Below, piece after piece: positions 1,672 through 63,900 of a DNA stretch of 64,000 nucleotides; within the stretch, counting starts at the first letter, position 1, and each line of letters begins with the position of its first letter. The notes below the pieces were generated by a model. That model made no database searches. It worked only from the letters and a program-made list of their open reading frames with translations, and was not told the origin of the DNA. Origin of the DNA: Octopus vulgaris (Eukaryota); contig OX597815.1 in the NCBI GenBank assembly GCA_951406725.2, positions 156,054,001 to 156,118,000 of the forward strand, in the 5' to 3' direction. The position numbers and the translations under genes were made by a program.

Positions 1672-1851
1672 TGAATTTGTGAATTCCTATATTTATCGAT
1701 TTACCAACACAGTCATCATAGAAAAACATACATTATAAAAGTGACATTATGTTTTGTTCAACAGTTTTTAGATTATATGGCAGGCAAATACAGGATTACA
1801 CAGGTGTATTTTGAAAAAAGCAATTGAATAAATGTAAGACATATTACTTAC

Positions 1852-2550
1852 CGGATCGTTGTTAGGATCCAAGGCTTCGACCAAGGTCTTTACGTGGCCA
1901 TCAGCGACAACTCTATGTTGGACGTTAGCTCCATGACACATTACGACAAGAATTCGCGCACTTAAAATTTGTAGGCAGTGATGTGTACATTGCCGTCGCC
2001 TCGTGCTAGGTGAGCACTTTTGCCGAGTTCCTATTATGCGTTTATGCATTGTGATATTATTGTGTAATACACTTAGAATCTGACTGGGGTCAGAATTGGT
2101 CAGAATTTCTAATGGAGTTCGATTTAACGGCATTATAGGTATGCGTAAATCATCCTCTTCTTGTAGACGATCATTATAACTTTGTTCCTTGAGGACAAAT
2201 TTCTTCGAACTTGATGATGGTTTACGACTAAGATTCGATGTCTCATCGAGTGATGTCTTTTGAGTAATTGGTTCTTTACGCATTGATAACCCACGGTTAG
2301 TGTTATTATCAATGTTTGCATTCGGACAGGCAGCAATGTTTTCAATGCTGTCTGTTAAAGAGCCAATTTCATAATTCCTATGATAAATGCATAAATCAAG
2401 GATTCGGTTAATAGTACTTAAAGCCGTAAAATGTAAAGATTGCTTCCCTCGCAGGAGATCAAAACCAATTCCTAACAGTTTAGTTAATTCCAGAAACAGA
2501 GAATGTTTTTCATCGTCGGATTGGGCGCCTTCCAGTTGTTCACAGCAGGT
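1852..2550 (-). CDS. Internal coding exon (233 codons, phase 0/0) of the host gene; tentatively the N-terminal region of an invertebrate phospholipase C-epsilon-like protein
   Basis: Open frame TCCEQLEGAQSDDEKHSLFLELTKLL...CTHHCLQILSARILVVMCHGANVQHRVVADGHVKTLVEALDPNNDP. Bounded by polypyrimidine acceptor (tttttttattcaag|) and donor CCG|GTAAGT. The exon call is strong; the PLC-epsilon assignment is from recalled similarity only and needs BLASTP. Confidence 0.8.
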
Positions 2551-5074
2551 CTTGAATAAAAAAAAGAGAGAAATAAAGACACATAAAGAATTTTATGCAT
2601 ATCATGGATAATATTTTTCTTATGCAAAGAGAAGATACATGAATTATTCCAGACATCTAAACAGACATCTTGGTAATTATACATACAGAGAATTTCAGAT
2701 GTTGATTTCATAAAAGCAACTCTTAATATTAAATTTTAATTCAAGGAGAAAAACGTATTATTCCATTTGAAATTATTAAAGAACCATACAATGAAGAAGC
2801 AAAACATTTTCAGTTATTCTGAATACAGTAAATCTCACATTAAATATAACATAGTTCGGGGTTGTACTTGTTTGGTTGTTTGGCAAGTGACTTAAGTATT
2901 TTTGATTTAAAAACATACTGACAGTCGTTGAGGTATATTAAGTTGCAAGGTAAACAATATACCCAATGGTATCTTATATAGATATAAAATCTGAAATTTT
3001 CATACAACGAGGAATGGAAATTTGTGACGTTTAAATTTCTTTTTAATTCCAAATGGTTTACGTGAAAAGGGTTTTAAATAGGAATCGATACTGGGTATTG
3101 TACTTTTCCCTCACGGGAGTTAACCACAGCTGTATAGCATTTGCCATAGCAAACCCTCGAATAATGAATAATGAAGACAAATCGATACATACTTAGCTTC
3201 GGGAATCTAGGAATAGAATATATCATAAACATAATTTTCAAGATTTAATTAAACAATTTTGCCATGGTTTGTATTTGTTCATTCACATGTTTATTGATTT
3301 ATAATAACTCTATAATCTTATATTAAACTTTTCTTTCTTTTTTAATTGTCAAAGAGAAGAAGAAAGTAAACTATTTATACTATTTATTCAATAAATATAA
3401 ATAGTAAAAATATGGCTTCAACTGATATTGAACAGCTTTCGTTTGACAAAACTTTGTGTATTTTACAATTAAATGTCTCTGGATATTTCTTTCCCAGAAA
3501 CAATTTCAACAAGATAGACTGAAAATGTATCGGAAATATTTAAAACCTATACCAAAATACAGAAATATAAAATTCATTTGTGTGCAAACGTGTCGAAGAC
3601 AACCTTACGTCGAGGTAATCATCCCTCTCCACAATTAATAATGACAGACGTAACTTCTACATATAAAGCAGTAAATATATTGAAGTGCCTCAATAGTGAG
3701 GCATTTCAAAGAGTTTCCTAGTCGGTTCAAAACTTGTCACTATACTTCGTTTCTTGTACTCAAAGCGACAAATATATAAGTATAATGCATTCATTTTATT
3801 TTTAAATATGAAGTGTACTCAAAATAATTTCTATAACATCTTCAGCTATCGTTATACTTTACATTTTTCATGAGAAATGTTTTCTATGCAATTTTATCAC
3901 TGATTATCATTGCTATATACCTTCAGTTCTGTTACATACAAAGAAGCGATTTGTTGGCCTCTCTTTCTTTCTCTATCCCAGTTTCTATGTTTCAGTCCCC
4001 AAAACTCGACATCATTATATAGATTAAGCCCATTAAGGAGCCTTTACACAGTCACATAATCTAGAAATAGCACCTAAGTCATCTTCAATTACATTCTCCT
4101 GAGAGGTCGTCTACGTTGTTTCTCGACCTGTTGGAAATAACAGTAAAATCTCGGTCAAATTACGCACTTCGCACCTCAAAAGATGGACTCATACAATGTG
4201 ATCCAAAATACTCTAAAAGAAGAGAACTTATGGCTGTAAAGTTGGTCGATGTATGGATCGACTGGGGTTAAGAATTCATTTCAAATTTTGGCACAAGGCC
4301 ATAAATTCCGTGGGAGGGATAAGTCGATTACATCGACCCCATTACTCAACTGAAAGTAATGGAGCTGCATAATAACATTTGGATAATATAGTCTGTTATG
4401 CGAATAATAATAATAATGGTACACACCTCCTACGTGACGAGTTATATGTGACAGTCATTATAAATACTGTCATTCCTAATACTGGAATGGTTATATGTTA
4501 CTTTTCAAGTAACAACACCAGCACAAAAAGATAAACCGAAACGCACAAGTATAAGAAAAAGTAATTGTACAGAGTTCCTGAAAGTGGATGCCAAACGAAA
4601 AATATTAAACATGTAACTGTAAAAAGGTTTTTTTAATTAAGAAAGGGAGGTGGGATGTTGTAAAGATTATTGCTATTAAAAGAAATAAAATTATATCCCA
4701 AGAAAAAAGGAAAACTTTAAAGAGATTTTACAGGGATAATAGTAATAACGGTACACCTCTTCCACATCACGAGTGATATGTGTTAGTCATTATAAACACT
4801 GTCAGTCAGTGTCAGTGTAGTAGAGAGTACGGAGTAGACGGTCATACATAGTCGTGGCCTTACTTGTCTAGCTAACTAACTACTATACCGAAGTGGCGTA
4901 CAACAGCCCGACAGAGGATTACAACATAGCCCTAGATACTCTATATCGGAAATAAAAGATGTGATATAGTCTCGAGAGAGACGCTTCTGATCATAAGTTT
5001 ATTCGATCAATATGAACCTGTAGAACAACAACAATAGCTGCAGCAACAATAAATATGTAAGAACCGGTCTTTAA

Positions 5075-5692
5075 CAATTTCAATATTTGGCACATGTCCA
5101 GAAAATACAGTTGAGGAGGGAAGTCGATTACATCGACCTCAGTACTCAGCTGGTACTTATTGTATCGACCCTGAAAGAATGAAAGGCAAAGTTGACCTCG
5201 GTGGAATTTGAACTCAGAAGGTGAAGACAAGCGAAATGATGCTAAGCGCAGGAGTGGCTGTTTGGTAAGTAGCTTGCTAACCAACCACATGGTTCCGGGT
5301 TCAGTCCCACTGCGTGGCATCGTGGGCACGTGTCTTCTGCTATAGCCCCGGGCCGACCAATACCTTGTGAGTGGATTTGGTAGACGGAAACTGAAAGAAG
5401 CCTGTCGTATATATGTATATATATATATAAGTGTGTGTGAATATGTTTGTGTGTCTGTGTTTGTTCCCCTAGCATTGCTTGACAACCGATGCTGGTGTGT
5501 TTACGTCCCCGTAACTTAGCGGTTCGGCAAAAGACCCGATAGAATAAGTACTGGGCTTACAAAGAATAAGTCCCGGGGTCGATTTGCTCGACTAAAGGCG
5601 GTGCTCCAGCATGGCCGCAGTCAAATGACTGAAACGAGTTAAAAAAAAAAAAAAAAGCATTTTGCTAAAGATTCTGCTAGTTCGTCGCCTTA
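5075..5692 (-). mobile_element. Deu/Nin-domain SINE (family B), interrupted by a family-A SINE
   Basis: Reverse complement contains the ctgagttcaaattcc...gcctttcat...gtcgata...gtaccag core. The head resumes after 5656 (gcattttgctaaagattctgctagttcgtcgcc). Confidence 0.75.
5246..5656 (+). mobile_element. Full-length tRNA-derived SINE (family A) with CR1/L2-type tail
   Basis: A box-like gtggctgtttggtaag, B box-like ggttcagtccc, internal (TA)/(TG) tract, tail ggcggtgctccagcatggccgcag...ctgaaac, poly(A). Many copies in the window. Confidence 0.9.
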
Positions 5693-20069: not shown

Positions 20070-20569
20070 TCACCGTGATCACCGTGACCGACCAGGCTAT
20101 CAAATGTTGCTACACATCGCTGGTCACAATGCGCTTAGCATTGTTTTAGCCTTCAAATGACGCCGCCCCGCTGGCTAAGCGAGCAGGCCAACAGACGAAA
20201 GAGTGAGAGTAAGTTGTGGCGAAAGAGTACAGCAGGGATCGCCACAACCCCCTGCCGGAGCCTCGTGGAGCTTTAGGTGTTTTCGCTCAAAAAACACTCA
20301 CAACGCCCGGTCTGGGAATCGAAACCGCGATCCTACGACTGCGAGTTCGCTGCCCTAACCACTGGGCCATTGCGCCTCCACATATATATATATATATATA
20401 TATATACTCCGAGCTTCATTCAGTTTCCGTCTACCAAATCCACTCACAAGGCTTTGGTCGGCCCGAGGCTATAGTAGAAGACACCTGCTCAAGGTGCCAC
20501 GCAGTGGGACTGAACCTGGAACCATCTGGTTGTTAAGCAAGCTACTTACCGCACAGCCCCTCCTGTGCC
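19843..20569 (-). mobile_element. Family-A SINE split by a family-C SINE inserted in its internal (TA)n tract
   Basis: 5' half at 20410-20569 and 3' half at 19843-20070 match the copy at 5246 in reverse. Confidence 0.85.
20071..20381 (-). mobile_element. tRNA-derived SINE (family C) with RTE-type tail
   Basis: Minus-strand head ggcgcaatggcccagtggttagggcagcg...ggtttcgattccc (A/B boxes); tail gaccagcg...ctggtcggtcacggtgatcacggtga; (TA)n on both sides. Confidence 0.85.
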
Positions 20570-28079: not shown

Positions 28080-28245
28080 GGTGCAGGTGGGGCTGTGTGG
28101 TAACAAACTTAGTTCCAAAACACTTGGTCCTCGGTTCAGTTCCACTGTGTGTTGACTTGGCATGTGTCTTCTGCTATAGCCTCAGACCAACCAAAGCCTT
28201 GTCAGTGGAGTTTGTAGATAGAAACTGAAAGAAATCAATCGTATA
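28080..28245 (+). mobile_element. 5' half of a family-A SINE
   Basis: ggctgtgtggtaac...ggttcagttccactg...gtgtcttctgctatagcctc...gaaactgaaagaa. Confidence 0.75.
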
Positions 28246-28246
28246 C

Positions 28247-28279
<33 letters not shown>

Positions 28280-29411
28280 ACAGTTTGCTTTGACATACAC
28301 TTAGATTGTGATTTCTGCAATGTGGTGCATAAATTGTCAAGTAAATAAGAGGCATCTTTGCCTCCACTGATTCAGTTGCAAAGTGTTGAGTAAAGTTATT
28401 TGATTGCAGACCTCCTTTCAGTCTTTTAATTATAACTATGTCACACATAGTCCCCACATGGCAACATTGATTTCAAGGCCTTCCCAGATAAGTGACTGGT
28501 TATTCAAAGACAGTTATAGATTGTAAATTTATTCTGTCTAGTTACGTATCAGTATAGTGGTCATTTGCAAACTCCAGAGGTGACACTTTTATTTCTCCTT
28601 AGCCCTCACGTCACACAGTTGTTAATGTTTATTTCAGTTGGGTCACGCCCTTCCAATTGCTATAGATTCGTAATGCATCTTACGGCTGTGCCTGTCACCT
28701 GGATGGTGAGGAATCCTACATCGGGTGTGGTAACGACTAGGTTAGGGTAGCTGACTACTTATTGTGATCATTTGTCATTTGGTTTCCTGTAGCTTTGCAC
28801 TCTTTTACAAACCCAGTGAACATATATTTCCTATTTCAAAGAAATTCAAACAATAGATATACGACTCAAGTTAAAAAGATTCTCAGCAATTCAACTTCTC
28901 TGAGTTGACATTAAGACAGCCGCCCCCAATAGGGGCCTTAAATCTCACATGACCTCCATTTTTCAGGAGTAAAATCCTTTTAACAGGTTCTATAACACTG
29001 GAAGTTTGGAATATGCGCATAAAAATCAGTAGTATGGGATACATGTGGCACGATTACAATTTTTTAGGGTGTGTAAAGAGAAAAATAACCTTCATCTGCA
29101 ATTTTGATGAAATTCGAAACATAGGTATTCCAGTTCATTACAGAAAATATAACAGAAAAGTCTAATTCTTCAATTGCATGTGACACAGGCAACACCGGGT
29201 ATCTCTGTTAGTACATTTATATACGTGCGTTAGTAAGTACATTCATATGCATACGTTCATACATACCCGCGTTCGGGCGCTAAAACCACATATATATGTA
29301 TGAGGAGTTGCTGAAAAGTTTCTGACTTTGGGTATAAGAAGACACAGAAGAATCAACTAATTTTCATTTTAATCAACAGGAGTGGCTGTGTGGTAAGTAG
29401 CTTGTCTAACC

Positions 29412-31434
29412 TCTGAACTGTTCGGACATGTTATTTTGCTGCTCCGGTTGCCACGTTGTTTCAACGTGAATTGTTGAACTTTCGACTCGACTAAAGGTAG
29501 GAATTTTGTATTTTTGCGAGCGAAGTGAAGTTTTATTACTTGCATTAATGTTTTTTAGCATTAAATATTTTTTTAGTAGATAATAAGGCTCCACTTTGCT
29601 CCGGATATAATTTTTCTGCCTGTTGTCGGGTGTAAAGAAAATTGTGTTTTTGAGGCGGCGTATTCCGTCTACAAAAACTATTTTTGAAATTGTCGTTTTA
29701 TTTACCAAGGTGTTGTACCAACCATATATTTGGCCTGGAATACAATTTTTGGCCGAAAAAGTGAACAAAAAAAAAAGAAAAATTAATTCCTTTGGCTGAT
29801 CTGAACTCTCTTTCTCTGTCTATCATTCATTTGTAAAAAAGAACTTTTTTTGAACTGCCATTTTAATTTTATTTCTTCCCTTCTGTTGCTTGTTTTCATT
29901 CTCCTTCTGTGTCTAATTTATTTTGTAACACTTTGAACTGTTTTTTTTTACGTTATGGCAAGGAATTTCACAGTGTGGGAATTAACACCTCCCAAAAAAT
30001 ATTTGAACGAACTTGAGGAAAAGACAGTGGTGCTGAGGACATATTCGAAGTCACTCGATACCATAATGGTCTTTCCGAAAGACACAATTATGAACGAGCT
30101 GGCAGACTATATGCCAGCCGTTAAACATATTCAACGGGGAGCCAAATACTAAACGATTTGGTTGCTGTTTGACTCCCCTAAAGCAGCTTGCGATTTCGCG
30201 AGTAAGCCCATTGAGGGCGAAGAGATTCTGTTTCTCCCAAGCTATAAGGGGGAAAAATTGATACGTTTATGGGTCTGCGGCCTGCCGGCCGGCTTTGAGT
30301 CTGAGTGGGTGGAAGATTTCATCCGCCGGGGTCTGAGTGGTGGTAGCGCCAAGATCCTGAACGTGAGAATGCAGCCTGCGGCTGACTGGGAAGGGGCAAA
30401 GGCTACTTTGACTCTGTGGACCCAGTCGGCCAAGAGTCTGGTTTTGCCGGACTTCCTGAAGATGGCCGGGTCCAAGTATCCGGTGATGCTAGAGGGACGC
30501 GCCCCCAAGTGTCACCTGTGTTCGGAGACCGGCCATATTAAGAAAAACTGCCCCAGGAACCAGAGTAGGATCCTGGAGAAGTTAATATCAGAGCCTCTCC
30601 CTGCCCCACCAATGGAGGGAGAGAAACAAAGTGAGGAGGGGGAAAAATCCTCCTCCAAAAGAAAAAGAAGAGTGGGGAGCAATGTCGACCCACAAAAGGA
30701 ACCGGAGGCTGCGGAAGAAAAAGAGGACCCGGTGCGTATAGCACCGGAACCTCAACCTCCCGAGGCCCAGCGTAAAAAGAAAAAGAAAAAGAGGATCGGG
30801 ACGCCACCGGCGGACTGTAACACCCAGAAGGCGTCTCCCAGGTGTCCTCCGGCGATTGTGATGCCGGAGAAATTTTATGTAGTCCTCTTCCATAAAGGAG
30901 GCACTGTAGAAAATGAAATACGTAAGAGGAGGAAGAGAAACGAATGGGAGGGACTTCGGTCCTGCATGGAGTATCCCGAGTGGCCTTCGCAGCTGGCTGC
31001 GGAGGTCCTACTCGAAAATGATATGTGCAGGATCGAGAATTCTTTCCCGAAGGATCTCTTGCAAGTCATACCTGTATGCGGAAGCCTGACGATGGACGAT
31101 TGCGTCATTAAAGCAAGAGAGTTCATCGGTCAGGTAACGTAAAATTGTAATTGTGTTACATTGTGACAGAGGTTTATTGCCTCTGAAGAGACTTTTAAAA
31201 GTGTAAATTGTTAATTGAAATTTTTGTGAAAATTTTTTGAAATTTTTGTAATTTTTGAAATTTTGTAAATCATTGAAAAAAAAAAAGAACATTGTTTTAG
31301 AGAAGCAAAAGTCGGCGGGCGCTTTCTGACTTCTCCCATCACCATATTCATCAATCACCACCATCATCCATTAATATCCTTGTCCAGCCCGTAGCTGCTC
31401 TTTGTGCTGCCCTTGTGGCAAATTAAATGAAATA
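29412..31434 (+). mobile_element. ORF1-only non-autonomous retrotransposon (HAL1-like 'half-Tx1')
   Basis: ~540 bp 5' UTR, one ORF1-like frame, ~290 bp 3' UTR ending tggcaaattaaatgaaata like the neighbouring Tx1. Flanked by target duplications; no EN or RT sequence. Confidence 0.8.
29955..31142 (+). pseudogene. ORF1/Gag-like nucleic-acid-binding protein (CCHC knuckle) with one in-frame stop at 30150-30152
   Basis: The 65 aa and 326 aa ORFs share a frame. EGRAPKCHLCSETGHIKKNCP is a CX2CX4HX4C knuckle. Aligns with the Tx1 ORF1 (EKTVVLRTY/KRTVVFKTF, QRGAKY*TI/ARGRAYGTV, PSYKG/ASYRG). Confidence 0.8.
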
Positions 31435-31840
31435 AAGTAGCTTTGCTAACCTCACTGACAGAAGAGTGACTTTGCTTACCGTACTACGGTTTGGACGCGT
31501 TTTCTTCCCGGTAAGAGTTTTGCTGTGTTGTTAATTGTTGAATTCCTACTACTGAAAATTTGCCTTTAAACGTTGCTGAACTGTCTTGTTCTCCGGTTTT
31601 ACCGGGAAATAATTGAATAACTTCTTACCGTTGAACTGTTAGCCACTGTGGCTTTTTATTTACGTGACTATATATAGTCCTGCCAGACTATTTTCGTGCC
31701 CCTCCCCCGAATGGGGGTGGGAATTGGAATTTTTGAACTGCTTTTTTGAACTACTTTGGAAGAAAAACTTTCTATAGGTTTCCCAGTTCTGTGGGAAACC
31801 AATACTCGTAATTTTTGTGTTGTCTAATTTCAACAGAATA

Positions 31841-33244
31841 ATGTCTGTTGAAATTATTCACGAAAGTAGTGCTCTTGAGGAGAGCAATGTTAAAAAATTT
31901 TCTGCGGTAGCCGCAGTGGCTACCGGGAACATTGACGTCGATGTCAACCAGCTCGTCGAGCTATTTAAAAGAATGCAAGAGGAGGGTGGTGATGTTAAAA
32001 TATCACCCTCCGCCAGTATCGTGGAGACCGAGAAGCGGACCGTAGTGTTTAAAACTTTCTGTCCACAAAGCAGAAGGTTCAAACACTTTGAAAAAAGCAC
32101 CATCGAGAAATACCTGTCCCCGATTTGGAAGGACATCGTGTACGTCGCCAGGGGACGGGCATATGGCACTGTGGATGTCCGCTTCTCGGGGGAAGAAATG
32201 GCCCGCGGTCATTCTGTGAACCCCCTAAAAACCAAGGAGGTGGTACTTTTCGCAAGCTATAGGGGACGCAGGACGTCCCGGGTCAGGATTGTAGAAGCCC
32301 CGCCGGAAGTAGATCCGGTAGAGGTAGTGGCCGCCCTGTTATATAAAAGGGCGGACAAAATAAAAATACTAGAAGTAACATGCTCTATCCCTCGATTTTG
32401 GCTCGGGCGTAACATTAATATATTAATTCAAGGAACAGCGGAGGACCTGCAGCTCCTTCCTGAGAGGGTGCTCGTGGGCGAGAACGTAGCCCTCAGGGTA
32501 CAGGTCGAAGGCCGAAAACCCACCTGTTACGCCTGCGGCAAAAAGGGCCACATTCGTGTAGACTGTCCAGACAAGCAAAAGAAACCGCAGACACCAGGCC
32601 CCTCAGATAATAAAAAGTCCCTACCCTTGCAAACACACCTACTCCTACAAAAACAAAAAATCCCACTCCTGCTGTTACGGTGCCAACCCCAAAACAGACT
32701 GAAGAAAAAACCCAGCCCTCGCACTCACAAACCCCTACACTATTAAAACCTCCCACCCCCCTAAAAACTGCGGCGCCTACCGAACAAACTATTGCTACCC
32801 CAGACGATACCATGGAGGTATCAGAGGGGGGATTTACACCAGTTCGTAAAAGAATTCGAGCAGCATCCCCGTCCACATCCCCTACAAAAAATAATAAAAA
32901 CAAAGACACACCACAGACACGGAAAAAAAAAATCCTGCTCAACTGGCCCAGAAAAAGAAGACAAAAAAGAAAATGAACTCATATTAATTGAATTCGACAC
33001 ACAAGACAAATACATAAACGATATTGTGGTTCAGCATCAGTCAGCAAGACTGTACAACAAATACAAAGATCGAAATAGACACGCGTGGATTGCGGAAACA
33101 ACGTTCAAACAATTAAAAGACAGACACCCAAACGCCATACGGCATATCGCGAACTTGCCGGACTATCTGAAGAAAGAGGAGAAAGAAGGGGCCCACAAAC
33201 GTGTGGTGAGGTCGGCCCCCACCTCTCCAACGAAATGTAAGTAG
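31841..33244 (+). pseudogene. Tx1 ORF1 (CCHC zinc knuckle), two frameshifts
   Basis: EGRKPTCYACGKKGHIRVDCP. Continues through overlapping ORFs 32680-32976 and 32792-33244 with shifts near A-runs. Confidence 0.8.
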
Positions 33245-33261
33245 AACTTTTACTTTTTGTA

Positions 33262-36200
33262 ATGGCTTCGCTTAACCTTGGTTGTTTAAATGTGCGTGGT
33301 CTGAGTTCGAAGTGGAAGCAGGCTTGTTTCCTCGACGACCTCAGACCACATGATATACATGTGATGGTTGCTACAGAGACCAAGCTGGACAGCCTACAAA
33401 CCTTCTCGCCTCTCCTGAATGGCTACGAGAAAAGCATGTCTCCTGGCCAGACCGGAGGGCGAGGGGGCGTAGTGGTACTGATCCGTAAAGACTTGGCTCT
33501 ACAGACAAGTACAGTCTATGTAGACCCGGAAGGTGGGCTGGTCGTCCTTGATGTGACATACAGCAGTAAGGCCTTCAGGTTGATCGGACTCCATGCACCT
33601 TGTGCTAGAGGTTTCCAAACTGATTTTTATCGGCGCCTAGAGGGCTTTCTCGTGACGTCGAAGACTTTAGTGATATTAGGGGACTTTAATGCTATCGTTG
33701 ACGTACACATCGATAGCGTTGGCTCGATCTATAGGAAAGTGAACTCACGTCTCGTGGATCTGCTTAAGCGGTTTCAGCTAGCAGATCGTTGCAGACTTGA
33801 CCATCCGAACGTCCCAGAGTGGACCTGGATGAGTGGCGACGGAAGGTTCAAGTCTTATCTAGACAGGATAGTGATAAGAACTAGAGATAAGTCTAGTTTT
33901 AGTTGTCCACAGCTCGTCCAGGTGCCCTATACTGACCATAGAATGGTCACGTGTAGACTGGACATAGATAGCACACTTAAGATAGGAACCGGCTACTGGA
34001 AGCTGAACAAGTCTATTTTGACACGCGAGGCATACCGTTGCCGGATTAAGGTGTTAGTGCAGAGGGCGTTAACCGGAGCCGTGGTTAATAACCGGTGGTG
34101 GTTCACCCTCAAAAGAGCCATTCGATTCGAGTCCATTAGATTTAGTAAACAACTAAGACTAGATAGGGCTAGAATAGAAGGGCAACTAGTTAAGAACTTA
34201 GAGGAGGCGTTGAGGTTGGGCTCTGCATCTCACATTTTAGCGGCGAGAACGGCATTAGACCGTCACCTCAAAACCAAACATGAGGGATGTAGAGTCCGGG
34301 CTAAAGTACGAGCATTGGGCCGTGAGGGAATTAATGTTGCCGGATGGGCCCGTACGATAGAAACACAGCGTGGAAACGATGCCACAATTGGGTCTCTTGA
34401 TGAAAACGGATGCACGATCAAGAAGCGGGACGAGATGTGTGAGGCACTTCACAAGCACTTCGCCGAGTTGTTCGGGAGGTGCGGGACGCTGGATCATGGT
34501 GAGGCCCTTAGGGACTTCCTGTCTGGTGGCCCGCGCCTATCGACACGAGAGGCTGAGTACTGTGAAGGGCCAATCACAGCCGAGGAAGTAATCGAGGTGT
34601 TGGGCAAGTGCCCCGGGGAGAAGTCGCCGGGTCTCGATGGTCTGCCCTATGAATTTTATAGAAGTATGCCAGACTTGTTCGGGCACCTGCTGGCTAGCGT
34701 CTACGCCAACTGGCAGCAGAATGGGAGAATTCCCAAGTCTGCGAGCCGGGGGGCGGTGACGTTGATCAGGAAGGACCCGAACAAGGGGGACGAGATAGGG
34801 AACTTCAGGCCCATAACTCTGTTAAACACAGAGTTAAAGATTCTGGCCAAGGTGCTAGCAAAAAGGTTGGCGCGGGTCGTGGACAAACTTGTCGGGGAAG
34901 CGCAAACGTGCGCTATCCCCGGCAGAACGATCCACGACAATCTCCACCTTATACGCTACTCCTTAGAGAGGGTGGGGAAGCTTTCTGGCGCAGGGGGAGC
35001 ACTGGTACATTTAGACCAGTCCAAAGCATTTGATAGGGTCGACCATCGGTACCTGGCGGCGGTCCTCGGAGAGGCTGGCCTAGGCCCGACCTTTCGAGGT
35101 TGGATCGCTGCTTTGTATAGCGACATCGAGTCTGTAGTCAAGGTGAACGGTTCCTTTTCGAAGCCGTTCAGGATCGAGCGTTCAGTTCGTCAAGGGTGTC
35201 CCCTGTCCTCGCTCCTATACGTATTGGCTCTTGAGCCTTTGCTGCGGAAGTTGGAGGCACTAGGGGCGCGCCGCATGATCTATGGTGTGGAAGAGGAGCT
35301 ACGGCGTATGCGGATGACACCTCCATCATCGTGGCAGACGAAGGCCTGCTTCCAGTGGTGGAAGAGGCCATCAAAAGCTACGAGGCGGTGGCAGGAGCAA
35401 AGGTTAACAAGGACAAGTCGGTCGGTTTGCAACTCGGCACCTGGAGGGGAAAGCCGATGCCGTCCAATAACGTCGTAGGGCGTTGGACGGAAGGTCCTGT
35501 TAAGCTGCTCGGAGTCTGGTTCGGGCCAGACCTCCAGATTGAGAAAAATTGGAGTGAGGTGGCCAACAAGGTGACCGCTCTAACCCAGACCTGGTCTGGG
35601 CAGGTGTTATCCCTGCTAGGGAAGGCGGAGGTGGTGCAGATGTTTATAGCATCAGTAATCACCTACCGTCTGACCGTGGTGCCTTGCCCCGATTTGTGGC
35701 TGAACAATTTGGAGAGAATCCTTTTCCGATTTTTGTGGAAAGGAGGAAAGCCACTTGTAAAGCGCTCTGTCTGCTGCCAGAAACCGCTAAAGGGTGGGCT
35801 AGGGATGCCTTGGCTGAGGATGCGAAAACTCGCGTTGAGGTTGAGGCACCTCTGGCTTTACCTGGATGGAGAGCAGGTGTGGTCGCCGCACGTCCAGTTC
35901 TATCTTCCCCAGTTAACATCCCTAATGGACATCGGTGCATGGATCAAGCGGAGACCTAAACTGAGTGAATGGCATTTGGAGTGCCGTCAGGCGCTCCAGC
36001 TACTATCTCGGGTGGGCAACGCCGGCAAAGGAGTTCCACCACGGATTTCTATAGCGGGTTAGTGGAGATTAAGTCCGAAGATGCCTTGGGGGAGACCCTG
36101 GGCTACGATGAAAATCAGTTGGTCAACCTGTTCCGGAGGACGTTCGGGCCGGGGTATCTGGATAATTACCAGAAATCCCTAGCCTGGCAGTGTTTCCGTG

Positions 36201-36658
36201 CGGCTTTACCTGTTCGCGACAAGCTGTCAAGGCACGGTAGTGCCGTCTCGCCGACATTCCCGCGATGTGAGCAGGATAGGGAGACCGTCTTGCACGCATT
36301 CGTGGAGTGTCCGGAGTTATCGGGACTGATAGCTTTTGTTGAACAACTGTTGTCAGTGATGGGAAGAGTACAGCTATCAGCTGAGTCTATCATCGAGATT
36401 GTGCCGCCCTCTTTCCTTAACAGGGAAAGAAAGGCTTGTTTTTTCTGTGTAGTAGCCATACTGAAAGAAACAGTATGGAAGACGCGTACGAAAGGTATAG
36501 TGACAGGCACCTTTGACTCCGGCCAGGGGTTGATTAACTTTTTTAGTTACCACCTCAGTAGCAAAATCAGGCTGGAGAAGAGGTGTCTGTCACGAGATAT
36601 GTTTGTGAAAAGATGGAAGCCTGTGGCATACAAGATGGGTATGTTTGGCACCAGGTAA
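33262..36658 (+). pseudogene. Tx1 ORF2: APE endonuclease, reverse transcriptase, C-terminal zinc finger; two frameshifts
   Basis: NVRGL, GDFN, YLDRI, TDH (APE). KSPGLDGLPYEFY, FRPITLLN, LDQSKAFDRVDH, RQGCPLS, with YADD in a shifted frame near 35307. (F)PRC..ETVLHAFVEC finger has its first Cys lost. Confidence 0.92.
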
Positions 36659-37016
36659 GTGTGACCGGATCAGAAAGTAAAGGTTCGACCCGGATGGCTG
36701 GGTGTCCGTCCTTCGACATGATCATTAATATTTTTAAACATTGCCTTCGTAAAATTCATTGTTTATAATCTTATCCGTAATTTCATTCGAAAATTGTAAC
36801 TTCACCCTTTATATTTGTCTGTCCTTGTTTGTCCCCTCTTTGTAAATCCCTAAATGGCAAATTATATGAAATAAAGTAGTTTGCTTACCAACCACATGGT
36901 TCCGAGTTCAGTCCCACTGCGTGGCACCTTGGGCAAGCGTCTCCTACTATAGCCTCGGGCCGACCAAAGCCTTGTGAGTGGATTTGGTAGACGGAAACTG
37001 AAAGAAGCCCGGCGTA

Positions 37017-37072
<56 letters not shown>

Positions 37073-37677
37073 CGTGTGTGTTTGTGTGTCAGTGTTTGTC
37101 CCTCTAGTATTGCTTGACAACCGATGCTGGTGTGTTTATGTCCCCGTCACTTAGTAGTTCGGCAAAAGAGGCCGATAGAATAAGTACTGGGCTTACAAAG
37201 AATAAGTCATGGGGTCGAGGTGCTCGATTAAAGGTGATGCTCCAGCATGGCCGCAGTCAAATGACTGAAACAAGTAAAAAAGTAAAGAGTAAAAGAGTAT
37301 CTTCCTCTTTCTCATTCACACACTTGCTACAGTGGCCCTTCAGTATTTTTAAAGCTCTTAAAAGAATTCGGAAGTTTGGGCCTCCATCGAGGCCTTTGGC
37401 AATACCCTTAAAGCCAGGAATTTTTCAGCACCTTCTCGAATGCAGGCGCGCGCGCACACACACGTACACCCACACACACACGTACACCCACACACACACA
37501 CATGTTTGCACGCTTACGTTAGCTTTTGCTTTTGTACTACACATATTCAATTATATTCATTTTGGTTTCGCAATAATACAAAGTTATTTTATAGCTCTTA
37601 AGTAATTGCTGTCCAACTTTATGAGTTTTAATTTTACTAAGTTAATCAACAATATTTTCAATATTACAGAATAATGT

Positions 37678-38012
37678 GGGCGCAAGTAAAGCTATGTAAT
37701 TAAGAAGCTCGCTTCGCAACCACGTGGTTTTGAGGTCAGTTTAACTGATTTATTGGGCAAGTCTTTCTTACTATAGCCCTGGGGCGACCAAAGCTTTGTG
37801 GGTGAATTTAGTTGACGTATATCTTATAGAACTCCATCATGCGTGTATGTGCGCGTTTGTGTGTGTGTGTGCGCGCCCACGTGTGTGTGTGTGTGTGTGT
37901 GAGTGTACGTGTTCGTCCGTGTCTGTCTCCATCACTTGACACTCGCTGGTTTGTTTACGTATCTATAATCTAGCAGTTCAACAGTAGACACTGACTGAGT
38001 AAGTACTAGCCT

Positions 38013-43754: not shown

Positions 43755-43905
43755 GAGTGGCTGTCTGGTAAGTAGCTTGCTTACGAACCACATGATTGGT
43801 TCCAGGTTCAGTCCCACTGCGTGGCACTTTGGGCAAGTGTCTTCTACTATAGCCTCGGGCCGACCAAAACCTTGTGAGTGGATTTGGAAGATGGAAACTG
43901 AAAGA
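43755..43905 (+). mobile_element. 5' half of a family-A SINE with intact target site
   Basis: gagtggctgtctggtaagtagcttgcttacgaaccac...ggaaactgaaagaag. Confidence 0.8.
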
Positions 43906-44100
43906 AGTTTACGAAAATAAACAAAAGACGAAGGCAGGTGGAGTACAAACAAACAAATGTATTAGTATGGCGCTCAGGAATAGAAATAGAACAAGTCTTT
44001 TACGTTTGGAGCCTACGCTCTTCGACAGAAAGATACACAGAAAAGAAACAAGGAGAGAAAAAAATGCGTGTAGGAACTAACGGTCCATTATGGTGTTCTG
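43906..44100 (-). mobile_element. Penelope-like pLTR fragment with degenerate hammerhead-like motif (43996-44033)
   Basis: Minus strand TCTTT-CTGTCGAA-GAGC(gtag)GCTC-CAAA-CG-TA-AAAGA. Downstream sequence resembles 9360-9480. Confidence 0.4.
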
Positions 44101-60453: not shown

Positions 60454-61067
60454 ATCATATTATCTCTGGCTGCCCAGTCCTGGCTAAGAAGGAATATATT
60501 CACAGACATGACAGATTTGGAACCTACATACACTGGAAGCTATGCCAACATTATGGAATAACAACAGAAAAAAGATGGTATAGGCACACACCAGAAAAGG
60601 TCACAGAAAACGAGAAAGCAACCATACTCTGGGATATGCCGATATACACAGATAGAGAAATTAAGGCCAACAGACCAGATATAGTTGTCAGAGATCATGA
60701 AGAAAAAAATGCTTTCTAATTGATGTATCAATACCGGCAGATGACAACGTTTCTCTAAAAGAAATGAAGAAACTTTCAAAATACAAAGATCTGGAAATAG
60801 AGGTAACCAGAATGTGGAATCTAAAAACAGAAACAATTCCTAGGCATGATAAAAAAATATTCAGACAAATACATAACAAAAACACCAGGACTTACAAACA
60901 CATAACATACAGAAAATTGCACTACTAGGCACTGTACACATCCTACGCAGAACACTTTCCATACAATAACCATCAGAGCATCACAACAAATCACAGCACA
61001 TACCTAAGGCACACAGAGCTGCGCTCGGTAGTGAAGTGAAAGCACGCTATAAAAATAAAACTACTGA
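60454..61067 (+). mobile_element. 5'-truncated R4/Dong-clade LINE, copy 1
   Basis: HIISGCPVLAKKEYIHRHD...ILWD...NRPDIVV (restriction-like endonuclease); near-identical to 62003-62637; (AAT)n tail. Confidence 0.9.
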
Positions 61068-61087
61068 ATAATAATGATAATAATAAT

Positions 61088-61149
<62 letters not shown>

Positions 61150-61151
<2 letters not shown>

Positions 61152-62637
61152 TCAATGAAATAAAAGAATTAGACCAAAGCCAAACTTACAAACACTTAGG
61201 AATCCATGAACTAGATAAGACACAACACACACAAATGAAAGAGAAAATAAAAAAAGAATATTATAGACGAGTTAGATCAATACTAAAAACAGAGCTCAAT
61301 GCTAAAAACAAGATAATAGGTATCAGCACTTTAGCTGTCCCAGTTATAAGTTACAGCTACAATATCCTTAACTGGACACGAAATGAACTGTCCAAAATAG
61401 ATAGGAAAACAAGAAAAATACTGACAGGATCTAGGATGCATCACCCAAAATCCGACATAGAAAGACTATATATACAACGTATAGAAGGTGGTAGAGGCCT
61501 TATACAGCTGGAAAACTACTATAAAATAACCACCATAGGACTGCAAAAATACCTACTTCAGAAGGAAGGAAAACTGATCCAGATAGCAGCAAAACACGAG
61601 CAAAACAAAAAACTGTTCTCAGTATTTAAGGAAGCTGACAAATACAAACAAGAAATCATACCACCTAATAAACACAAAGAAGAAGAAGAAGATGATGAAG
61701 AAACAACAAAAGCTATAAAACAAAAGAAATCCAAACTAAAAATAGAACAGCAACGAGCCATGATAAAACGATGGCAAGAAAAGCCCCTTCATGGTAAATA
61801 CTGCACTAAACTAAACGCAAAAGAAATAGACAAAGAAAAATCCCAGCAATGGTTGAGAAGCTCAGGACTCAAAGCAGAAACAGAGGGATTTTTAATTGCA
61901 GCACAAGACCAAAGCCTCCCCACCAGAAATTACCAAAAACATGTAATGAAAAGAAATATTACAAGTAACTGCAGAATATGTGGAGATGGACAAGAAACAA
62001 TAAATCATATTATCTCTAGCTGCCCAGTCCTGGCTAAGAAGGAATATATTCACAGACATGACAGAGTTGGAACCTACATACATTGGAAGCTATGCCAACA
62101 TTATGGAATAACAATAGAAAAAAGATGGTATAGGCACACACCAGAAAAGGTCACAGAAAACGAGAAAGCAACCATACTCTGGGATATGCCGATACACACA
62201 GATAGAGAAATTAAGGCCAACAGACCAGATATAGTTGTCAGAGACCATGAAGAAAAAAATGCTTTCTAATTGATGTATCAATACCGGCAGATGACAACGT
62301 GTCTCTAAAAGAAATGGAGAAACTCTCAAAATACAAAGACCTGGAAATAGAGGTAACTAGAATGTGGAACCTGAAAACAGAAACAATTCCTATCATAGTA
62401 GGCGCATTAGGCATGATAAAAAAAATATTCAGACAAATACATAACAAAAACACCAGGACTTACAAACACATATAACATACAGAAAATTGCACTACTAGGC
62501 ACTGCACACATCCTACGCAGAACACTTTCCATACAATAACCATCAGAGCATCACAACAAATCACAGCACATACCCAAGGCACACAGAGCTGCGCTCGGTA
62601 GTGAAGTGAAAGCACGCTATAAAAATAAAACTACTGA
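61150..62637 (+). mobile_element. 5'-truncated R4/Dong-clade LINE, copy 2 (RT end, CCHC finger, RLE)
   Basis: TYKHLGI, GGRGL, AAQDQ, CRICGDGQETINHIISSC, RHD, RPD; after a shift LIDVSIP...KYKDLEIE to TAA at 62537-62539. Flanked by (AAT)n. Confidence 0.92.
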
Positions 62638-63052: not shown

Positions 63053-63689
63053 TAATAATAATATTGTAACAGAACCAAAAGAAAATCAGGAGCGTATACA
63101 TTTGAAGGGTTAGGATAATACTAAAATTTAAGCAGAACTGTAGGAATCCATCACTAACATGCACGTAAAAGCCGTAGCCATCTCATCAGGTATGGCGCCG
63201 GAAAATCAAATTCACAATGGTAGATAAACAGTGAAATTGCCGTCAATTTACGGAACCTTACAGGCAGATATCGACAGATTTTATATTTCAGCAAAGGAAT
63301 AAAAGTAGCGGATTCATAAGTGTAGAAAACTGGGAGAAATGGAGAGGTTGAGAGAATAGGTTACTGACAGCGAAGAGTGATTTTGGTAGTAGTAAGAATA
63401 GAAATTTATTCTCTTTCCCCAATTGAGGGAACGGAAAAAAGTGAAGTTCTCGGAGCTAGAAAATATCATTACAGTCAGAAAAACTTACATCGACGGTTCT
63501 TCAAAATAGTGAAGACTATCGAAATCAGAAATCGTCTTAATGGCTAAAGAAAGGTGTGTTAAAAAAAAAGAGACAAAGGATTTATACTAGGTGTGTACAT
63601 CAACAAATCAGAATACGATACTTCAGAAACAACATAGATAAGCAAGATGTCATGCACAAATTGAAAAGCGCTAGAATTTTCGGTAAGTC

Positions 63690-63900
63690 CTTGGCCGAAT
63701 CTCAAACTCATCGTTCAGCAGAGTTATTCGGTCAAATGTTATATACGATATTTTCTCGTGAGCATCTGTTCTTAGTAGAGTTTCTTTCCGGTTCACAGCA
63801 CTAGGATTTGTCCTGTTTTGTTGCCAATTACGGTAGACATCTTTCAAGAAGTTGCTTGACAAGTCCGGTATGTATTTGTAAAACTCATAGAGATGGTATT
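63690..63900 (-). mobile_element. Old Tx1-family RT fragment
   Basis: LYEFYKYIPDL...VYRNWQQN...ITLLN aligns with LPYEFYRSMPDL...VYANWQQN...ITLLN of the element at 31452. Confidence 0.75.

Follow-up and report, generated by a model that had tools for sequence, protein, structure and literature searches.

In a 64,000-nucleotide stretch of the Octopus vulgaris genome (contig OX597815.1 of assembly GCA_951406725.2, forward-strand positions 156,054,001 to 156,118,000; hereafter the window), one copy of a short interspersed nuclear element (SINE) is interrupted by two other retroelements: EL1, a 2.0-kb element with open reading frame 1 (ORF1) only, and EL2, a 5.4-kb long interspersed nuclear element (LINE). 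As the original prediction for this DNA had it, both lie in the same (+) orientation, and Pfam domains agree with the ORF content assigned to them. The order is SINE head (29377-29394), junction 1 (29395), EL1, junction 2 (31435), EL2, junction 3 (36874) and SINE body, and the head rejoins with the remainder (36874 to about 37298) when set against intact copies in the window (5245-5440, 20379-20568, 43755-43907), so that a single SINE was indeed split by insertions. The three target motifs are where they were said to be, as 16- or 17-mers, but they are not three plain target duplications, since in the first two the 3' portion derives from the elements' own 5' ends. With up to three mismatches allowed, the 16-mer matches the window 5 times (0.52 expected); these 5 do not include two of the three junction copies, both of which have an additional T. 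Apart from their last 35 bases and the junction, EL1 and EL2 have almost no DNA sequence in common.

Insertion at one position of the SINE head

The genome searched comprises 2.8 Gb in 227 contigs. Using element DNA only as query, we read 30 loci per element end among the 40-60 matches listed, each set including the window copy, and all 120 junctions (four ends, 30 each) fell at the SINE-head site. The 3' ends of EL2 were followed by AAGTAG in 30/30 cases (27 times leading into a SINE body, three times into a sister element) and those of EL1 met the target in 30/30 (21 SINE body, 9 sister element). All 30 EL2 5' ends lay at the site, 27 preceded by a SINE head and 3 by a sister tail, as did all 30 EL1 5' ends (22 and 8, respectively). 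Genome-wide there are 109 exact EL2 tails; the target follows directly in 95, and of the 12 fetched from the other 14, eight sit in variant SINE sites, two are followed by the start of the target only and two are off site, which places 105 of the 107 examined (~98%) on site. Among 78 tails of EL1 (passenger) type, AAAGT comes next in 64 and the remaining 14 sit at an AAGAAG form of the site (12 clear, 2 degenerate), hence 76/78 are clearly on site. None of the counted EL2 and EL1-type junctions has a poly(A) tail.

The claim that these elements target the SINE head site-specifically therefore holds genome-wide, and 3' junctions sit in the SINE site rather than mostly in unrelated sequence. For comparison, a target preference is called in Tx1 families, in the part of the survey drawn on here, when more than 20% of flanks fall in one repeat (PMC4494074); for EL2 tails the figure is 105/107. 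Exact filled junctions number 543 as against 62,922 exact empty SINE sites (0.86% filled), and with ORF2 sequence in only 5/40 filled sites drawn from pattern lists, passengers and truncated copies predominate. None of the junctions read lies in a real tRNA gene, no search having been aimed at tRNA genes. In one EL1 subfamily (L116, L119, L120, L096) several insertions are preceded by A or G rather than T, and in the upstream flank of L083/L127 the first 20 bases of the SINE head stand in tandem repeat ahead of a filled copy.

The SINE as an independent host

SINE bodies at 55 EL2 loci show a median difference of 9%, the EL2 tails a difference of 1% (ungapped comparison, 1131 pairs under 30% kept). 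This, together with flanks that are unique at filled loci, identifies the SINE as an independent, older host and not as part of the elements. Nor does it appear to be the LINE's own passenger and so a case of self-targeting: its tail is unlike the hairpin-GAAATA end of the elements (see below), and 0/53 distinct host SINE tails are followed by the target.

A-box-like and B-box-like motifs are visible in the host, which may belong to the tRNA-derived octopus OK/OR families (Ohshima and Okada 1994). An Rfam search of the head returned no tRNA hit up to E 10, and ARAGORN found no tRNA in the SINE at its default setting and a tRNA-like fold only at relaxed thresholds of 70-80%, so a tRNA origin of the head is weakly supported. 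A second form of the SINE (AAGAAG, TTCCC) provides 4,092 exact empty sites and, with a broader pattern, 104 filled junctions; it is likely older than the AAGTAG form.

The EL2 family

EL2 carries the Pfam domains Exo_endo_phos, RVT_1, zf-RVT and zf-CCHC. Its ORF2, with an N-terminal apurinic endonuclease-like (APE) domain, reverse transcriptase (RT) and C-terminal zinc finger, and the ORF1 upstream of it are those of the L1/Tx1 group. The best solved relative of the ORF2 protein (ORF2p) is human L1 ORF2p (E 3e-67; R2 follows at 1e-19) and the nearest named protein, 64% identical, is from Argonauta. In a quick RT tree (96 rows of 160 after thinning at 80% identity), EL2 groups with the Argonauta protein (Shimodaira-Hasegawa-like approximate likelihood ratio, SH-aLRT, 99), more loosely with amphibian elements (95) and apart from plant L1s. 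Look-ups in the ESM Atlas and in sequence clusters gave no clade name for EL2. Catalytic motifs of the endonuclease are present in the alignment; an AlphaFold model of this domain from one sequence reached a predicted local distance difference test (pLDDT) score of 37 and was left unused.

EL2 belongs to a large family of recent origin: among 55 full-length copies the mean pairwise distance is 1.9% (minimum 0.13%), and an open 1133-aa ORF2 was found in five copies among 20 regions examined. A second autonomous family of 5.7 kb (L213, G000:C2:95672000-95680700) occupies the same site with an open 1133-aa ORF2 that is 93% identical to that of EL2.

EL1 and other ORF1-only elements

ORF1 of 384-415 aa is open in 13/36 short units. 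The ORF1 of EL1 is 26-30% identical to that of EL2 (E 1e-16 to 1e-21), and between passenger groups ORF1 identity is 42-44%. Over the first 210 codons, the ratio of nonsynonymous to synonymous change (dN/dS) lies at 0.21-0.29 in most between-subfamily pairs, with one at 0.09; two within-subfamily pairs, with very few changes, gave 0.79 and 2.1. Judged from these alignments, purifying selection acts on the 2-kb element, an ORF1-only passenger that resembles half-L1 (HAL1) in having ORF1 without ORF2, insertions of its own and selection on ORF1. The shared target and 3' end suggest that passengers are mobilised in trans by the LINE ORF2p.

Some EL1 subfamilies have ~200-bp monomer repeats in their 5' untranslated region (L139, L201, L218, L219 and further EL1 matches); mouse L1 promoters are likewise built of monomer repeats. 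Different ORF1s occur with one common tail among the ORF1-only elements, and three frames (L139-_2840, L209-_308, L140-_5729) look like ORF1 mosaics, some being 68-72% identical to the ORF1 of L140 with an N-terminal part that goes with EL1.

Structure of the junctions

Copies truncated at the 5' end show target duplications of ~1 to 16 bp (16 in L144 and L158, shorter in L153, L154, L160, L164 and L173), and over all insertions the range is 0-16 bp. In 61 full-length copies the 5' junction closes in AACC nearly regardless of the target. Where the target has T at position 13 and the site is thus informative, the 5' junction reads A in 20/21, and junctions with an extra T are found at 15/21 mismatched versus 9/40 matched targets (Fisher p 3e-4). 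Both biases imply that the element's 5' end carries a mimic of the target; the repeated 16-mer is accordingly part target duplication and part mimic. The latter restores a full target site and likely anneals to the target during second-strand joining.

Stacking and order of insertion

Among 77 EL2 loci, the strict rule of our script found a SINE head directly upstream in 56 and a sister tail in 7, leaving 14 unclassed (mostly truncated or rearranged). At least four different tail types occur directly upstream of EL2; an EL1-type element does so also at L136, L189 and L147. EL1 and EL2 are thus far from always fused, being mostly apart or with other partners. A sister element adjoins in 5/49 consecutive census loci, the unbiased count (a wider one of 10/77 includes loci chosen for being stacked), and stacking is commoner than occupancy predicts, with p 7e-5 at 0.86% of sites filled and 3e-3 at 2%, and a borderline 0.046 at 4%. 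At L216 one private base (position 11) recurs in all three junctions, which means that each insertion copied target DNA and that the insertions were sequential. This disfavours a single template-jump event as the source of stacks, although stacks other than L216 may differ.

In the window, EL1 lies 2.3% from its nearest sampled relative (1.31% private changes versus 8 relatives) and EL2 1.03% (0.59% versus 54 relatives). With EL1 about twice as far from its nearest relative, the LINE probably inserted after the passenger, into EL1's 3' junction, within the limits that sampling sets to this comparison. Homogeneous arrays (L140 and a triple on C9) may have grown also by tandem duplication. Arrays of 4-6 ORF1-only units at ~2-kb spacing (G000:C5:78746211-78756158, C10:101175584-101186112, C1:223694774-223700802) could reflect either sequential insertion or tandem duplication.

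When the empty allele was looked up in other animals, contigs of four sequencing runs ended at the SINE head and three raw-read runs yielded no read at the locus; alignments that skip 29398-36881 were rejected as evidence for an empty allele because they derive from other SINE copies. Pieces of both elements occur in runs under four organism labels and were not used for dating.

Tail hairpin and antisense box

All tails have a 4-bp hairpin followed by GAAATA. The hairpin shows double-sided changes (outer pair T-A in 26 and G-C in 9 of 41 representatives surveyed, 4 having been misplaced by the script), and it is likely the binding site of ORF2p. In addition, many tails contain an antisense box of 6-9 nt that is complementary to the target; shuffled tails match it in 2.2%. 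We surveyed 167 distinct tails in 41 clusters. At AAGTAG sites 122 tails have AGCTAC, none AGCTTC and 22 no box, while at AAGAAG sites 10 have AGCTTC, 2 AGCTAC and 11 no box. By cluster, 14 are concordant for the AAGTAG type, 8 for the AAGAAG type, 1 is discordant and 18 lack a box; in the main EL2 cluster 61/62 tails have it. In autonomous elements the box is found near -79, in passengers at -41 to -50, and its context differs between them, so the two boxes are non-homologous and yet both switch with the target. Fourteen EL1-type tails not followed by AAAGT were predicted to sit at AAGAAG sites and to carry AGCTTC, and 13/14 have this box; an additional tail at these loci is discordant. In tails folded together with the downstream target, the box pairs with the target in 5/10 examples. 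The window copies are themselves imperfect, EL2 having lost its box through a 13-bp deletion and EL1 having one box base changed.

The sister families that fill AAGAAG sites are more divergent (~70-90% identity to the young families) and carry old-type 5' mimics (L234, L252, L293); EL2 itself was found there in 0/107 (6% expected, p 1e-3). We take these patterns as signs that RNA-target pairing tracked the evolution of the host SINE, and it seems likely that such pairing helps the elements aim. A group of passengers (~1.5-kb units at L122, L229 and L234, and further copies at L230, L236, L237, L242 and L260) is without a box, and several box-less passengers have an ORF1 nearer to that of EL2 (~38-42%) than to that of EL1.

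Discussion

Our data describe a real, precise and genome-wide variant of the transposon-targeting Tx1-like LINEs, to which ORF1-only passengers and signs of RNA-target pairing are added. We consider it probable, with some reserve, that a young APE-type LINE, likely of the Tx1 clade, and its passengers insert at a single base directly after the A-box-like motif of the SINE, likely by target-primed reverse transcription and with an RNA that likely pairs with the target at both ends. In such a scheme ORF2p would bind the common 3' hairpin, whereby passengers could borrow it in trans, and the endonuclease would nick at CTACTT/A on the bottom strand and at a distance of up to 16 nt on the top strand. 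The predicted transcript would start inside the 5' mimic and read through into AAGUAGCUU, so that its extension into the downstream target could pair with the nicked strand and give the exact, tail-less 3' junction. The antisense box may hold this extension in a stem or pair with the displaced top strand. Finally, the target-like end of the cDNA would anneal to the top strand, seamlessly in the case of matching alleles and otherwise often with an added T, and with both junctions still usable, elements could stack.

Several points weigh against this scheme or qualify it. Two fragments of LINE tails, 193 and 29 bp long, lie off site, and 2/109 tails are outside the examined set. Read-through of the RNA and its pairing partners are deduced from sequence; the box might pair with the RNA's own read-through, with the displaced DNA strand or with SINE RNA, any of the three being conceivable. 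Membership of EL2 in the Tx1 clade is likely from architecture and behaviour, the tree having no named Tx1 or vertebrate L1 reference inside. The order of insertion depends on distances to sampled relatives, and at the C9 triple and L215 the younger copy is upstream. Box-less clusters (18/41) still insert at the site, hence the box is not required for all passengers, and three loci are discordant (2 in the survey, 1 in the follow-up). Since the clusters are related, covariation reflects few independent switches (at least two), and because the A's of the tail overlap the AA of the target, nick positions have no unique reading.

Some of these points would suit a model in which the endonuclease alone reads the site, the box serves only to fold the RNA or arose as a by-product, and the 5' mimic goes back to an old duplication that was inherited. 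The Xenopus Tx1L endonuclease nicks almost solely its own target in vitro, as far as the cited portion of that work goes (PMC1950540), and box-less passengers at the very same base as well as two T-type boxes at AAGAAG sites are what this model would allow. It does not, however, account for a box base that tracks the target base at two separate positions in two lineages, nor for a junction form that depends on the match between target and mimic, and so to our minds it is possible though clearly the less likely option. Recruitment by the Pol III machinery or the SINE transcript (through A/B-box factors, or box plus SINE RNA) with cutting at the nearest suitable step seems very improbable. While the site directly past an A-box-like motif, a box complementary to the SINE sense strand and stacking at 5/49 versus 0.9-2% occupancy (p 7e-5 to 3e-3), as hot copies would give, are compatible with it, stacked insertions occurred where A and B boxes were already kilobases apart, and many targets have eroded heads. 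That the elements form one fused unit, or that the LINE carries SINE pieces as its own ends, can hardly be upheld for the family as a whole: the EL1-EL2 neighbours at three further loci and the homogeneous arrays, explicable by tandem duplication, are outweighed by lone EL2 copies with a SINE head upstream (56/77), differing upstream partners, SINE bodies far more varied than LINE tails and 5'-truncated copies in the same site with duplications of their own.

Returning to insertion aided by RNA pairing, a further step would be that the tail box, by pairing with the target strand in priming, serves as a short guide, and that one compensatory base change retargets an APE-type LINE whose lineage follows SINE turnover. 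We regard this as a tentative, rather unlikely extension; if true, insertion should move to another target once the box and the RNA ends are altered jointly.

Dewa elements reside at tRNA arrays. Other Tx1 families, going by the sections of the survey used here, target transposons, U2 (Keno), U5, 5S, satellites and microsatellites, the transposon targets including Tx1D for Tx1L (Xenopus), Mariner-N4_AMi for Tx1-Mar, Harbinger for Tx1-9_AMi and LTR elements for Tx1-8_Crp and Tx1-4_AMi (PMC4494074). With the transposon-targeting families our system shares an APE-RT LINE with CCHC ORF1 inside another mobile-element family and passengers of the same target preference. It differs in its host, a SINE whose exact sites number >60,000 and are dispersed, in that ~98% of tails are at one base, passengers code for ORF1 and the tail box is complementary to the target, and in a lineage that extends over two subfamilies of the SINE and shows changes to match. 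Like Keno-type elements it uses a fixed site in a small-RNA-like multicopy sequence, albeit a selfish, fast-changing repeat instead of a conserved gene. HAL1, described in the excerpted source as a non-autonomous L1 derivative with ORF1p only and several origins in mammals (PMC5753468), has in common with our passengers the ORF1-only structure, purifying selection and a 3' end shared with the autonomous partner, whereas the octopus passengers are site-specific, non-mammalian and fall into several divergent subfamilies. According to the passages cited, R2Ol inserts better when the 3' end of its RNA has read-through 28S bases (PMC6530143), and some R2 have 28S-derived sequence in the 3' untranslated region (PMC5035012). 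Target sequence at RNA ends going with precise junctions is thus shared with R2/R1; the box here, however, is internal and antisense rather than a sense copy, and the enzyme is of APE and not of restriction-like type.

We found no report of a LINE targeting a SINE in the literature searched, which covered neither subscription journals nor Repbase, where these families may already be listed. A 2026 octopus repeat annotation puts the recently active L1-Tx1 families at 13 and their insertions at 421; the word 'target' is absent from the portion of its text considered here (PMC13282606). The system reverses the usual parasitism of SINEs on LINEs and offers a natural series of joint changes in the target, the tail box and the 5' end of the element, extending from young to older families; copies with an open ORF2 are at hand. 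It thereby makes directly testable an old question, namely how APE LINEs gain or shift specificity, by a protein loop or by RNA pairing. As a precise, tail-less and mostly full-length integrator of 5.4 kb, it may also be relevant to targeted gene insertion.

Features of the window

Coordinates of the locus are collected in Table 1.

Table 1. The split SINE and its two inserted elements (positions refer to the window)
Feature	Position	Strand	Remarks
Host SINE head, 5' piece with A-box-like motif, stops at insertion point	29377..29394	+	94% match to intact SINE at 5245
Junction 1: duplicated target start and passenger's own target-like 5' end, extra-T form	29395..29411	+	
EL1, 2.0-kb ORF1-only non-autonomous element, HAL1-like passenger	29412..31434	+	Multi-copy
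EL1 ORF1, CCHC zinc knuckle, single in-frame stop at 30150-30152	29955..31142	+	
EL1 antisense box, one base off its family's AGCTACT	31393..31399	+	
EL1 3' end, 4-bp hairpin then GAAATA, without poly(A)	31408..31434	+	
Junction 2: duplicated target start and LINE's own target-like 5' end	31435..31451	+	
EL2, 5.4-kb full-length LINE, L1/Tx1 group	31452..36873	+	109 exact family tails genome-wide
EL2 ORF1, zf-CCHC, two frameshifts here; 455-467 aa in open copies	31841..33244	+	
EL2 ORF2: APE endonuclease, RT, zf-RVT; two frameshifts here	33262..36658	+	1133 aa open in five other copies
EL2 site missing 13 bp that contain the family's antisense box	36795..36805	+	154 vs 167 bp match
EL2 3' end: hairpin (one mismatch in window copy) then GAAATA, without poly(A)	36847..36873	+	
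Junction 3: SINE's own target sequence	36874..36889	+	
Host SINE 3' part: B-box-like motif at 36898, (TA)n, tail closing in short AAAAGAG repeats	36874..37298 (end approximate)	+	

Further, more diverged copies of the host SINE lie at 28083-28263 (76%) and 37701-37817 (71%). Elsewhere in the window, a 409-aa open frame at 61040-62266 (+) resembles a piece of another retroelement, an RT fragment with 40% identity to that of EL2 lies at 63677-63889 (-), and a stop-free frame of 274 aa at 1771-2592 (-) is possibly an exon of a host gene.

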